Source: a virus (Duplodnaviria > Heunggongvirae > Uroviricota > Caudoviricetes). Taken from it: a stretch of 5,250 nucleotides of DNA. The stretch lies in IMG/VR virus record IMGVR_UViG_2609459846_000012; one strand, 5' to 3'. Position numbers and translations under genes: made by a program. The notes beneath the pieces were generated by a model. That model was not told the origin of the DNA. It did not search any database and saw nothing but the letters and a program-made list of their open reading frames with translations. This document shows, in pieces, positions 1,044 to 5,099 of the stretch. Numbering within the stretch: the first letter of the stretch is position 1; each line of letters opens with the position of its first letter.

Positions 1044-1139
1044 TTACTGATGCAAGGTGCAGAAACGACGAAACCCGGCAGTGCGCTAACACTAACCGGG
1101 CTTCTAACCACCAACGATAGAAAGCGTATCGAGGTAGCT

Positions 1140-2033: not shown

Positions 2034-2333
2034 ATGAAACTTAAATATTCTGGCTTAACTGCCAGTGGCAACACTCACCCTAAATTTACGCGCGGCGATA
2101 TTTACCGCGACCAGTACGGCGGCACGGTAATGATTAAGGACGTGGAAGAACGGCGCGTAACCTACCGCCGTGAAGGTTACGAATATGATTGCGTGATGCC
2201 TGTTTATCAGTTCCGGCGTGATTTTTCTCTGGTACAGACCGCGCCGCATAACGTGTCCACCAGCAACGCCAGGGCACGGGCAAACATCCAGAAGCTGAAA
2301 ACCATGATTAACGGATTCAGGGGTAAAAAATGA
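2034..2333 (+). CDS. hypothetical protein, 99 aa, immediately upstream of and coupled to the replication gene
   Basis: ORF-track ORF; SD GGAGA upstream; stop overlaps the alpha-like start (ATGA). Occupies the position that epsilon/orf151 hold relative to alpha in P4 as I recall it, but no sequence support for homology. Confidence 0.55.
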   Translation: MKLKYSGLTASGNTHPKFTRGDIYRDQYGGTVMIKDVEERRVTYRREGYEYDCVMPVYQFRRDFSLVQTAPHNVSTSNARARANIQKLKTMINGFRGKK

Positions 2334-4144
2334 AACTGGCACCGAACGTAAAACAGCAGTCACGCGGCATAAAACACAAAGAAACAGAAGTCATTATTTT
2401 TGCGGGTAGTGATGCCTGGTCACACGCAAAACAATGGCAGGAACATGACGCGCGTATGGCCGGAGATAATGAGCCTCCTGTGTGGCTTGGGGAGCAGCAG
2501 TTATCCGAACTGGATAAGCTGCAAATTGTGCCGGAAGGCAGAAAATCCGTGCGCATATTCAGGGCCGGATATCTTGCGCCAGTAATGATAAAGGCGATTG
2601 GTCAGAAGCTGGCGGCGGCAGGCGTACAGGATGCAAATTTTTATCCTGAGGGTATGCACGGCCAGGAGGTGCAGAACTGGCGCGAATATCTGGCCCGTGA
2701 GCGCCAGAATCTTTCTGATGGTCTGGTGATTCAGCTTCCTGTTAAGAAAAAAACAGAAGACAGCGCCGCACCACTGGCGCTTAACCAGATGGGAGCAAGC
2801 CAGCGCGGCGAAGTTCTCCTGGCACATTATGGCGGTGAACTGGCGATTCATGCCGACTCTGACACTGTTCACCATTACAACGGCGTTGTATGGGAGCCGA
2901 TTCAGGATAAAGAGTTACAGCGTGCTATGGCGCAGATTTTCATTGATGCGGAGATCAGCTATTCGCAGAACGCCATTAAATCGGCGGTCGATACCATGAA
3001 GTTAAGTTTGCCTGTAATGGGGAATACAGCCCGTAACCTGATTGGATTCAGTAACGGGGTATTTGATACCAGAACAGGTAATTTTCGGGAGCATAACAAA
3101 AACGACTGGTTGTTAATTGCCAGTGAATTACCTTTCAGCCCACCAGCAGAGGGGGAAACGCTGGCAACACATGCGCCGAATTTCTGGAAGTGGTTACGCT
3201 GCTCGGTGGCAGAGAATGACCGCAAGACGGATCGCGTGCTGGCTGCATTATTCATGGTGCTGGCGAACCGGTACGACTGGCAGTTATTCATTGAGGTAAC
3301 AGGTCCAGGGGGAAGTGGTAAAAGCGTGATGGCGGAGATTTGCACCATGCTGGCGGGTAAGGCCAACACAGTATCGGCAAGCATGAAGGCGCTGGAAGAT
3401 GCAAGGGAACGCGCGTTAGTGGTTGGCTTTTCGCTGATTATCATGCCGGATATGACCCGCTACGCTGGTGATGGCGCAGGAATTAAGGCTATTACAGGCG
3501 GTGACAAGGTGGCAATCGACCCGAAGCATAAAGCCCCCTACTCAACACGCATTCAGGCGGTCGTGCTGGCGGTGAACAATAACGCCATGTCATTCAGTGA
3601 CCGCAGCGGGGGGATCTCACGTCGTCGGGTGATATTCAATTTTTCGGAGGTTGTACCGGAGAACGAGCGCGACCCCATGCTGGCAGAAAAAATAGAAGGA
3701 GAGCTGGCGGTTGTGATTCGCCATCTGCTTACTCGTTTTTCTGACCAGGACGAAGCTAAACGCCTGCTGTATGAGCAGCAGAAATCAGAAGAAGCTCTGG
3801 TGATAAAACGCGAGGGCGATTCGCTGGTGGACTTCTGTGGCTATCTCATGTCGTCGGTAATGTGTGATGGTCTGTTAGTGGGTAATGCCGAAATTATTCC
3901 GTTCAGTCCGCGCAGGTATCTTTATCACGCCTATCTGGCATATATGAGGGCACACGGATTCGGTAAACCTGTAACACTGACGCGCTTCGGTAAAGATATG
4001 CCGGGGGCAATGGCGGAATATGGCAGGGAGTATATAAAACGGAAAACGAAGCACGGTTTGCGTTCAAATGTGACACTGACAGAGGATTCAGAAGACTGGA
4101 TGCCATCATGTGCATCGGTCACAAATGACGACAGCAAAAATTAA
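2330..4144 (+). CDS. P4-alpha-like replication initiator: D5_N-like region plus SF3 (P-loop) helicase, 604 aa
   Basis: Walker A VTGPGGSGKS (nt 3302-3325); Walker B-like hydrophobic run ending in D (LIIMPD); motif C-like VVLAVNNN; upstream GFSNGVFDTRTGNFREH resembles the D5_N / P4-family primase C-terminal region. Cognate iterons lie immediately downstream. The N-terminal ~200 aa are unassigned. Confidence 0.85.
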   Translation: MKLAPNVKQQSRGIKHKETEVIIFAGSDAWSHAKQWQEHDARMAGDNEPPVWLGEQQLSELDKLQIVPEGRKSVRIFRAGYLAPVMIKAIGQKLAAAGVQDANFYPEGMHGQEVQNWREYLARERQNLSDGLVIQLPVKKKTEDSAAPLALNQMGASQRGEVLLAHYGGELAIHADSDTVHHYNGVVWEPIQDKELQRAMAQIFIDAEISYSQNAIKSAVDTMKLSLPVMGNTARNLIGFSNGVFDTRTGNFREHNKNDWLLIASELPFSPPAEGETLATHAPNFWKWLRCSVAENDRKTDRVLAALFMVLANRYDWQLFIEVTGPGGSGKSVMAEICTMLAGKANTVSASMKALEDARERALVVGFSLIIMPDMTRYAGDGAGIKAITGGDKVAIDPKHKAPYSTRIQAVVLAVNNNAMSFSDRSGGISRRRVIFNFSEVVPENERDPMLAEKIEGELAVVIRHLLTRFSDQDEAKRLLYEQQKSEEALVIKREGDSLVDFCGYLMSSVMCDGLLVGNAEIIPFSPRRYLYHAYLAYMRAHGFGKPVTLTRFGKDMPGAMAEYGREYIKRKTKHGLRSNVTLTEDSEDWMPSCASVTNDDSKN

Positions 4145-4158
4145 ACTTATGGAATAAC

Positions 4159-4386
4159 TGTTCACCACTGTTCACCCTGTTATAAATATCTTTTATATCA
4201 GTACATTATAGGGTGAACAGTTATTTGTGAACTGTTCACCAAACTATTCACTGTTCACCTTTTTGATTATTTATTGAGCTTTAAGGGTGAACAGTGGTGA
4301 ACAGTTGGTGAATAGTTTTTGTGAAACTGTTCACCCCTTAACATTATGAATAAAAAGGGAAAATATCAAAAGGTGAACAGGTGAAG
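4159..4386. repeat. origin of replication: iteron array of TGTTCACC octamers in both orientations, interspersed with AT-rich tracts
   Basis: Forward TGTTCACC at 4159, 4169, 4233, 4252, 4328; reverse GGTGAACA at 4212, 4286, 4296, 4372; degenerate copies at 4177, 4245, 4307, 4380. Adjacent copies are spaced 10 bp apart (4159/4169; 4286/4296). AT-rich stretches at 4177-4210, 4260-4284, 4336-4370, 4389-4418. The octamer is identical to the type I iteron bound by P4 alpha in ori and crr, as I recall it. Confidence 0.8.
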
Positions 4387-4431
4387 GGTTAAAATGCAAA
4401 AATTTTATTTTATTGCTGTGAGGTAAAGCCT

Positions 4432-4677
4432 GTGACAACGAAGCACGCAAAAAAACCACAATCTCACGCCCTTGATTTGACAGAACACTGGCTGAGGGTG
4501 GCGATAAAAATCATCGACCGCAACGCGGGAGAAGGGTACGCAAAAGCACATCCCGAACTGGTAAGCGCATTCATGACCACGGCAGCGGCAAACTTTGCCA
4601 CGCTGACAGAACGGGAGATTGCCGAAGCGGAACAGGTGACAACCATCAACGTTAAAACCGGAGAGCAGACAGCATGA
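4432..4677 (+). CDS. hypothetical protein, 81 aa (GTG start)
   Basis: ORF-track ORF; GAGG 8 nt upstream of GTG; stop overlaps the start of the SSB-like gene (ATGA). Confidence 0.55.
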   Translation: MTTKHAKKPQSHALDLTEHWLRVAIKIIDRNAGEGYAKAHPELVSAFMTTAAANFATLTEREIAEAEQVTTINVKTGEQTA

Positions 4678-5099
4678 CAGCACAGATAGCGGCTTACGGG
4701 CGGCTGGTGGCTGACCCGCAGTTAAAGACCACCAGCAAAGGGACACAAATGGCGATGGCGAGTATGGCGGTTCCCCTGCCGTGCAGCCAGGCAGATGACG
4801 GAACGGCGACGATGTGGTTATCTGTCCTGGCGTTTGGCAGACAGGCCGACGCACTGGCAAAACACCACAAAGGCGAACTGGTGAGCGTGGCGGGTAACAT
4901 GCAGGTGAGCCAGTGGACAGGCCAGAACGGGGAAACGCGGCAGGGCTGGCAGGTTATTGCAGACAGCGTAATCAGTGCGCGAACGGCGCGACCGGGCGGC
5001 AAAAAAGGTCAACAGGGCCAGGCCACTGACGCACTGAACAGGGCAAAACAACAGACAAGCCAGCACGATGACCCGTACGGGGATAACATACCGTTTTAA
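4674..5099 (+). CDS. compact single-stranded DNA-binding (SSB-family, OB-fold) protein with conserved acidic C-terminal tip, 141 aa
   Basis: By-eye alignment to E. coli SSB: IAAYGRLVADPQL vs VILVGNLGQDPEV; MWLSVLAFGRQADALA vs EWHRVVLFGKLAEVAS (W54 and F60 equivalents kept); SQWTGQNGETRQGWQVIAD vs RKWTDQSGQDRYTTEVVVN (W88 equivalent kept); C-terminus DDPYGDNIPF vs SSB tip DFDDDIPF. The Gly/Gln-rich linker is much shorter than in host SSB. Confidence 0.7.
   Translation: MTAQIAAYGRLVADPQLKTTSKGTQMAMASMAVPLPCSQADDGTATMWLSVLAFGRQADALAKHHKGELVSVAGNMQVSQWTGQNGETRQGWQVIADSVISARTARPGGKKGQQGQATDALNRAKQQTSQHDDPYGDNIPF

Follow-up and report, generated by a model that had tools for sequence, protein, structure and literature searches.

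How does the element recorded as IMG/VR virus IMGVR_UViG_2609459846_000012 (Caudoviricetes) replicate, and how closely does it follow satellite phage P4 in doing so? We addressed this question in a 5,250-nucleotide (nt) stretch of the record, hereafter the window, in which a gene for a 604-amino-acid (aa) protein, Rep, is followed directly by an array of octamer repeats. A sequence-only reading had taken positions 2330-4390 for a P4-alpha-type initiator gene with its origin immediately 3' of it. We conclude, with a probability of roughly 85%, that this segment serves a capsid-forming phage-inducible chromosomal island (cf-PICI) as its replicon, made up of the helicase-initiator Rep and an iteron origin directly 3' of its gene. 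The P4 kinship proposed earlier holds for the helicase and binding-domain homology, the iteron and the ori layout, but Rep is not a full alpha protein and the element is a cf-PICI.

The rep gene and the helicase and DNA-binding features of its product are as follows.

2330-4144, + strand: rep gene, 604 aa (WP_001735913.1, 'DNA primase family protein'), from the open reading frame (ORF), Pfam and P4 alpha homology
2810-3199, + strand: D5_N domain, aa 161-290 (Pfam PF08706, E=4.8e-13)
3299-3625, + strand: superfamily 3 (SF3) ATPase core, aa 324-432 (Pfam DUF5906)
3302-3325, + strand: Walker A, GPGGSGKS, aa 325-332, by motif location
3434-3451, + strand: Walker B, LIIMPD, aa 369-374, by motif location
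3566-3580, + strand: motif C, LAVNN, aa 413-417, by motif location
3617-3631, + strand: paired-arginine motif SRRRV, aa 430-434, at the end of or just past the ATPase core
3812-4099, + strand: C-terminal winged-helix origin-binding domain, aa 495-590 (Pox_D5 in Pfam; 1KA8 match)
4037-4078, + strand: predicted wing hairpin KRKTKHGLRSNVTL, from a low-confidence model, 1KA8 homology and covariation

The SF3 motifs and the D5_N region recognized earlier from the letters alone are thus both in place. P4 alpha aligned with Rep aa 137-594 (458 aa) at 49.5% identity (tblastn), with 64% identity in the helicase and 48% in the binding domain. Residues 496-592 matched 1KA8, the origin-binding domain of P4 alpha, at E=3.3e-24 (phmmer), and the ATPase core matched PriRep5 of the Staphylococcus aureus pathogenicity island (SaPI) SaPI5 (PDB 7OLA) at E=2.8e-10. 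The anticipated similarity to P4-family proteins was therefore found against alpha itself, but not at the level of the NCBIfam model TIGR01613, for which Rep scored 96.0 bits, under the cut-off of 108.7. As had also been remarked, Rep is shorter than P4 alpha (777 aa). A structure model of the binding domain placed a beta-hairpin at aa 570-579; this model is of low confidence (predicted local distance difference test, pLDDT, 55) and was used for the hairpin position only, so that the wing assignment rests on the 1KA8 homology and on covariation. Judged by sequence, Rep is predicted to be a self-loading SF3 helicase and replication initiator. In the 90%-identity cluster that contains Rep, the representative is a phage portal protein and portal proteins form the majority of the members listed, a mixture that is evidently a database clustering artefact.

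The window contains 11 exact copies of the octamer TGTTCACC; 0.23 would be expected, and none of 200 shuffles had more than 2. Nine of them lie 3' of rep, at 4159 (+), 4169 (+), 4212 (-), 4233 (+), 4252 (+), 4286 (-), 4296 (-), 4328 (+) and 4372 (-). The first begins 15 bp past the rep stop codon, and the array spans 4159-4387. Four degenerate copies bring the count to that given in the sequence-only reading, with both orientations represented.

4226, - strand: degenerate iteron AGTTCACA, 2 mismatches
4245, + strand: degenerate iteron TATTCACT, 2 mismatches
4307, - strand: degenerate iteron TATTCACC, 1 mismatch
4380, - strand: degenerate iteron CCTTCACC, 2 mismatches

The other two exact copies stand isolated within rep, at 2866-2873 (+) and 3571-3578 (-), the second overlapping the codons of helicase motif C (LAVNN). 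The P4 alpha gene has no internal copies, and those inside rep are probably coincidence.

Adjacent iterons are 10-11 bp apart, and the ten good iterons are in helical phase, with a vector strength of 0.81 at 10.5 bp (Rayleigh p about 0.001) and a best period of 10.6 bp. The 10-bp phasing described earlier is sound in this helical sense, but a strict 10.0-bp period was not upheld over the whole array (R=0.08). The AT-rich flanks mentioned with it correspond to three tracts.

4177-4211, no strand: AT-rich tract, 80% AT
4260-4285, no strand: central AT-rich spacer between the inverted modules, 26 bp, 81% AT
4336-4371, no strand: AT-rich tract, 78% AT

All three rank among the least stable duplex segments of the window, the least stable being 4177-4211. 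Iterons and tracts are organized in two modules, giving the overall pattern ++ - +++ / AT / --- + --.

4157-4259, no strand: ori module A, ++ (4159, 4169), - (4212), +++ (4233, degenerate 4245, 4252)
4286-4387, no strand: ori module B, an inverted copy of A, --- (4286, 4296, 4307), + (4328), AT-rich spacer (4336-4371), -- (4372, degenerate 4380)

In module A, the iteron starts on either side of the 35-bp AT-rich spacer (4177-4211) are 43 bp apart; module B is supported by the inverted repeats I1-I3. An Rfam match to MIR5380 at 4217-4330 was rejected as an artefact of the inverted repeats, no Rfam match having reached its gathering score, and a single-stranded DNA fold of the origin (z = -8.9) was discarded as evidence, being a trivial result of inverted iterons.

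The GenBank record of P4 (NC_001609) annotates 16 'ori type 1 repeats' across ori and crr. All six in ori and five of the ten in crr read TGTTCACC, the other five being off by one base; the iteron of the window array is thus identical to the P4 type I iteron, as the sequence-only reading had proposed. In the alpha sense, P4 ori runs ++ (43 bp) - (22) + (11) + (10) +. Window positions 4157-4259, with ++ (43) - (21) +++, are colinear with the whole of it, and positions 4286-4387 mirror it as --- (21) + (44) - -. The spacer of module A is more like the P4 ori spacer than 1996 of 2000 shuffles. Since module A is P4-ori-like and module B is its mirror, the origin can be described as a P4-ori-like module duplicated in inverted orientation on the two sides of a 26-bp AT-rich centre.

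Position alone could suggest a different role. For replication, P4 depends on ori and crr, two cis sites set apart from each other. Both P4 and the window element have iterons clustered immediately 3' of the initiator gene, but the cluster in P4 is crr (two 120-bp direct repeats), with ori 2.3 kb upstream of alpha; the end of the window array can likewise be aligned to crr. A comparison of the array with both P4 sites succeeds for module A, colinear with ori, but the cluster at the corresponding position of P4 is not ori. On these grounds the array could be a crr-like cis enhancer or a copy-number control site acting by Rep titration or handcuffing, with replication starting elsewhere in the island. 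We consider this very improbable. The whole 35-kb locus contains a single TGTTCACC cluster, which leaves the island without a second one, and both modules match the layout of ori and not that of crr. Moreover, in the island EcCICFT073, rep together with the equivalent downstream region alone drives plasmid replication, and deletion of either rep or ori abolishes it (PMC6092414). By analogy with this working origin in a sister island of the same layout, and with P4 ori, the array would be the origin of the element, as the sequence-only reading had it.

The repeats might instead be operators through which Rep or another protein governs the downstream SSB/ProQ and capsid genes. They do lie between co-oriented genes, with no terminator-like site found between rep and the genes for an 81-aa protein and SSB, and shortly before the next gene begins at 4432. 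However, no + strand promoter-like site was found within 4145-4431, and the pattern, with thirteen phased sites, two inverted modules and AT-rich tracts, is that of the origins of P4, SaPIs and PICIs. Use as operators in addition is possible and would not replace the origin role; that they are operators and no origin appears very unlikely.

The cf-PICI replicon is widespread and conserved. The rep-ori segment was present at a coverage of at least 80% in 584 of 5,426 complete Escherichia coli genomes, and its layout is kept in nine loci from six genera (Escherichia, Klebsiella, Raoultella, Kluyvera, Pluralibacter and Citrobacter). Across these nine loci, conservation is 0.94 in iteron columns versus 0.76 in spacers (p=4e-14). 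That the module is an inactive relic, a P4-derived helicase minus its primase with leftover sites in a decaying island, as the missing primase domain, the TIGR01613 score under the cut-off and a pseudogene annotated nearby might suggest, is scarcely credible given the intact rep ORF, the exact protein on 580 contigs, the number of E. coli genomes with rep-ori, the conservation of iteron columns across genera and the same primase-less architecture in the functional EcCICFT073 protein. Circumstantial support for autonomous replication comes from NZ_CP148328.1 (L085), a circular record of 10,790 bp. Although deposited as a plasmid of E. coli, it is a PICI (int, AlpA, YlcI/YnfO, Icd-like, DUF4222 and rep of the window allele) with the same nine-iteron origin at 5557-5777.

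Relatives with other iterons tie the repeats to the protein. TGTCTACC is used by L004, L005, L013, L017 and L018, TGTCCACC by L022, TGTGCACC by the Proteus loci and TCTCTACC by Symbiopectobacterium. Among the iteron-swapped alleles whose layouts were mapped (L007, L004 and L005), the double-module layout was found intact in L007 only, an EcCICFT073-type allele with TGTCTACC, and L004 and L005 carry their TGTCTACC copies in a different arrangement. In an alignment, the helices of the binding domain are nearly unchanged between the TGTTCACC and TGTCTACC PICI clades. The wing hairpin, KRKTKHG--LRSNVTL (aa 570-583) in Rep, varies with the iteron centre across relatives: it is similar in P4 alpha (KRHTKQG--IQTNLTL) and reads KRAKCTKGPDKGRVITNVLL in the L004 type. 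Islands with unrelated helicases (DUF927 or RepA-type) have unrelated repeats at the same position, TAACCCGC and AAAGTGAGG. The iteron-swapped sister alleles amount to a natural specificity swap experiment.

The surroundings of the replicon identify the element. The window is 100% identical to part of the chromosome of E. coli E203449, where it belongs to a ~14-kb island inserted between allE and allC. The island starts with a tyrosine integrase and an AlpA-type regulator (Pfam Phage_AlpA), followed by a divergent YlcI/YnfO gene, an Icd-like gene and three small ORFs. Next come DUF4222, the 604-aa 'DNA primase family protein' and the 287-bp intergenic region, 3' of which lie an 81-aa ORF, SSB and a ProQ/FinO protein. 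Its packaging genes, in the annotation of locus L001 (21179-27175), encode an HK97-type major capsid protein, prohead protease, portal, connector, HNH, TerS and TerL, and the locus annotation shows no tail or lysis genes. PICI replication modules are defined by a rightward operon from int and alpA to rep, with the origin directly 3' of rep and two iteron sets flanking AT-rich DNA (PMC6092414); cf-PICIs by their own capsid, portal, protease, connector and terminase genes, without tail or lysis genes (10.1101/2022.09.08.507074). The island shows the former in its gene order, AlpA Pfam match and origin layout, and the latter in its annotated gene content. The host element is a cf-PICI with its own capsid, portal and terminase genes. 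A P4-like satellite was rejected as host element, as the island has its own capsid and terminase genes and psu, delta and sid are not among its annotated genes (annotation only, no profile search). P4-like satellites are marked by epsilon and a psu-delta-sid operon for capsid size, and they depend on capsid genes of the P2 type.

The part of Rep that differs most from P4 alpha is its N-terminus.

2330-2734, + strand: N-terminal domain, aa 1-135, putative Toprim-like alpha/beta fold without the canonical Toprim Glu and DxD

A Pfam scan that returned Zn_Ribbon_Prim (aa 30-66) and Toprim_3 (aa 210-299) for P4 alpha gave no match to Zn_Ribbon_Prim or Toprim in Rep, and the first ~310 residues of alpha have no detectable sequence counterpart there. 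From topology and a MAFFT alignment, the position of the catalytic Toprim glutamate (EGYATA motif) is taken by Ala25 and that of DxD by R78-A79-G80; the invariant N-terminal motif TEVIIFAGSDAW has Ala at the position of the catalytic glutamate. The similarity of the N-terminal family to P4 alpha 1-330 was not significant in hhalign, so that descent from the P4 primase is unsupported and only a Toprim-like fold is suggested. Some acidic residues are conserved in non-canonical places: 92% of family members keep E20 and 80% keep position 107. Judging from these sequences, the label 'Pri' is probably a misnomer for this family.

The same domain behaves as a cassette. The first 422 nt of rep are 91-97% identical to copies fused to quite different helicases. 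The cassette (~140 aa, window 2330-2750) also occurs in L007, L008, L009 and L083, and its partners at this level of nucleotide identity are two D5_N/SF3 alleles, DUF927 and RepA/AAA_25. An exhaustive profile search of 1.84 billion proteins returned 136 representative clusters. In the full-length proteins examined, the domain is located at or near the N-terminus and never accompanied by a Pfam Toprim or zinc ribbon; its helicase partners are D5_N/SF3 (13), DUF927 (10), VapE-like (1) and AAA_25 (1). Serratia relatives of Rep (L019-L022, ~585 aa) keep the D5_N, helicase and binding parts with a third kind of module in the first ~130 aa, related neither to the PICI cassette nor to the P4 primase, and the repeats downstream of their rep homologues read ACTGTCCGC or TGTCCACC.

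How the cf-PICI replicon would work can be modelled on SaPI Rep and P4 alpha. In the SaPI model, a self-loading helicase reads iterons downstream of rep through its C-terminal winged helix, and two hexamers assemble, one per side of AT-rich DNA (PMC9371898). Correspondingly, the C-terminal winged-helix domain of Rep would recognize the octamer TGTTCACC and bind the iterons, whose sites would share one helix face, and one Rep hexamer might load per module, in opposite orientations. AT-rich DNA would then melt, the central spacer (4260-4285) being one candidate site, and two helicases would travel apart 3'->5', resulting in bidirectional theta replication after excision of the island. As Rep has no recognizable primase active site, priming would probably be supplied by the host, possibly aided by the island SSB with its host-like acidic ...DNIPF tail.

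Several points weigh against the cf-PICI replicon as set out here. The winged-helix model is of low confidence (pLDDT 55), and the melting site is ambiguous, the least stable tract lying within module A (4177-4211) and not at the centre. P4 needs two cis sites, and that a single composite site could suffice is suggested by the EcCICFT073 experiment only. Finally, the conserved E20 and position 107 leave room for an unconventional primase activity, which the N-terminal family may possess.

The genes next to rep add context to the replicon.

2034-2333, + strand: DUF4222 gene (Pfam PF13973, E=8e-24)
4432-4677, + strand: gene for an 81-aa protein (phrog_1231), profile match
4674-5099, + strand: SSB gene, 141 aa, C-terminus ...DDPYGDNIPF

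The DUF4222 stop overlaps the rep start (ATGA, 2330-2333), and DUF4222 precedes rep in most sister islands examined, the exceptions being L006 and L084 with an unnamed hypothetical protein there. Five small genes upstream of rep (1336-2333) overlap or abut (1346/1336, 1596/1569, 1802/1795 and ATGA 2330-2333), which suggests translational coupling as far as rep. Downstream, the 81-aa gene and the SSB gene (4432-5099) likely belong to the replication module. The SSB of E. coli recruits partner proteins through its acidic C-terminal tip, which the tail of the island SSB (...DDPYGDNIPF) resembles; this could be relevant to the primer supply of a primase-less Rep.

At the other end of the operon, the interval that separates the rightward icd-to-rep genes from the divergent YlcI/YnfO gene contains a promoter-like site, TTGACG-17-TAAATT (1002-1030), bracketed by three palindromes GTGTTNAACAC at 991, 1007 and 1032 (0.01 expected). 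These palindromes (991-1042) are likely operators governing the replication operon. A weak Rfam match to the SymR antitoxin RNA at 1067-1139 (-), at the start of the Icd-like gene (32.8 bits vs a gathering score of 61, E=0.002), does not reach the threshold and is probably due to chance. Positions 170-760 contain no intact gene. A truncated pseudogene is annotated there by RefSeq (222-759), and the minus strand has both a 62-aa ORF at 530-718 that matches no family and a strong terminator-like hairpin at 463-443.

Two wider points can be combined, tentatively and at clearly less than even odds, into one reading. First, the Rep lineage of PICIs and cf-PICIs would share initiator specificity with P4, in the octamer, the ori module and a similar wing; second, the 'Pri' part of Gram-negative PICI Pri-Rep proteins would be no primase but a non-catalytic Toprim-like cassette that moves among four unrelated helicase types. 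Neither point was found stated in the literature reviewed. Because octamer, ori module and wing are shared, P4 alpha and Rep could fire or titrate each other's origins. If the reading is true, cross-activation or incompatibility would be expected between two satellite families regarded as having analogous, unrelated replicases, the wing hairpin would serve as a simple switch setting which centre of the TGTnnACC iterons is read, and the cassette would link the helicase to host priming, or else to a factor of the helper or the host. The iteron and wing variants found in nature offer a ready test set for site reading by winged-helix initiators and bear on incompatibility among satellites in the same cell. 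Placing the origin and initiator of a widespread cf-PICI is useful for satellite annotation and minimal replicons, and two impressions left by the satellite literature would be corrected, concerning the P4 alpha homology of PICI alleles and a 'Pri' part without the residues a Toprim primase needs.

Among the closest known systems is EcCICFT073, a Gram-negative PICI (Fillol-Salom et al. 2018, PMC6092414). It shares the island gene order (int, alpA, YlcI/YnfO, icd-like, small ORFs, DUF4222, rep, ori, SSB), an N-terminal domain about 97% identical to that of Rep, the primase-less architecture and, in this L007-type allele, a double inverted layout [++ - +++][-- .. --] directly 3' of rep. It differs in being a classical PICI, not a capsid-forming one, in its iteron (TGTCTACC vs TGTTCACC) and in its helicase and binding domains, which are only 33-55% identical to those of Rep; in these domains Rep is nearer to P4 alpha than to the EcCICFT073 allele. 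The supplement of PMC6092414 gives no iteron sequences in text form, and a literature text search for TGTTCACC returned primer and oligo noise only. The Pri-Rep of EcCIRM13514 (AHG11293), one of four published E. coli PICI alleles, is 85% identical to Rep and has the same TGTTCACC iterons in the same layout, in another island, a classical PICI without a capsid module integrated at yicC-dinD.

SaPI Rep and PriRep5 are likewise helicase-initiators with a C-terminal winged-helix domain, and the SaPI origin, like that of the window, lies directly downstream of rep with opposed iterons flanking AT-rich DNA (PMC9371898). Overall sequence similarity between SaPI Rep and Rep is low, however, the SaPI iterons are 5-6 nt long and unrelated in sequence to TGTTCACC, and a genuine primase is encoded by SaPIs, whether fused or as a Pri protein of its own.

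With P4, the window element shares the D5_N, SF3 helicase and C-terminal winged-helix domains of the initiator. P4 alpha has in addition a zinc ribbon and a catalytic Toprim primase, both absent from Rep, and in place of ori and crr, which are kilobases apart in P4, the window element has one composite site of two inverted ori-like modules. P4 has a terminator, t-alpha, after its alpha gene; the window element, unlike P4, has none between rep and the repeats. DUF4222, considered as an analogue of P4 Cnr, was dropped for want of any similarity to it, and with DUF4222 tested no Cnr homologue was found in the window element. The island, again unlike P4, has capsid and terminase genes of its own, and psu, delta and sid are not annotated in it.

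PICI Pri-Rep proteins have been described as 'different in sequence' from alpha (PMC6092414), and satellite replicases have been suggested to be 'analogs instead of homologs' (PMC10085698); a kinship of PICI Pri-Rep with P4 alpha was not found stated in the satellite literature reviewed. The Pri-Rep proteins of EcCIRM13514 and EcCICFT073 align with P4 alpha at 41-50% identity, with E-values down to 1e-161, and by this measure these two at least, out of four published E. coli PICI alleles, are clear homologues of P4 alpha and not unrelated analogues. The module is of a kind already known, in which a PICI has its origin 3' of rep and AT-rich DNA lies between two sets of iterons, and its allele class is already catalogued; the relationship to P4 is a refinement and not a new kind. 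The most accurate label is a PICI Rep-ori module of the P4-alpha helicase lineage.

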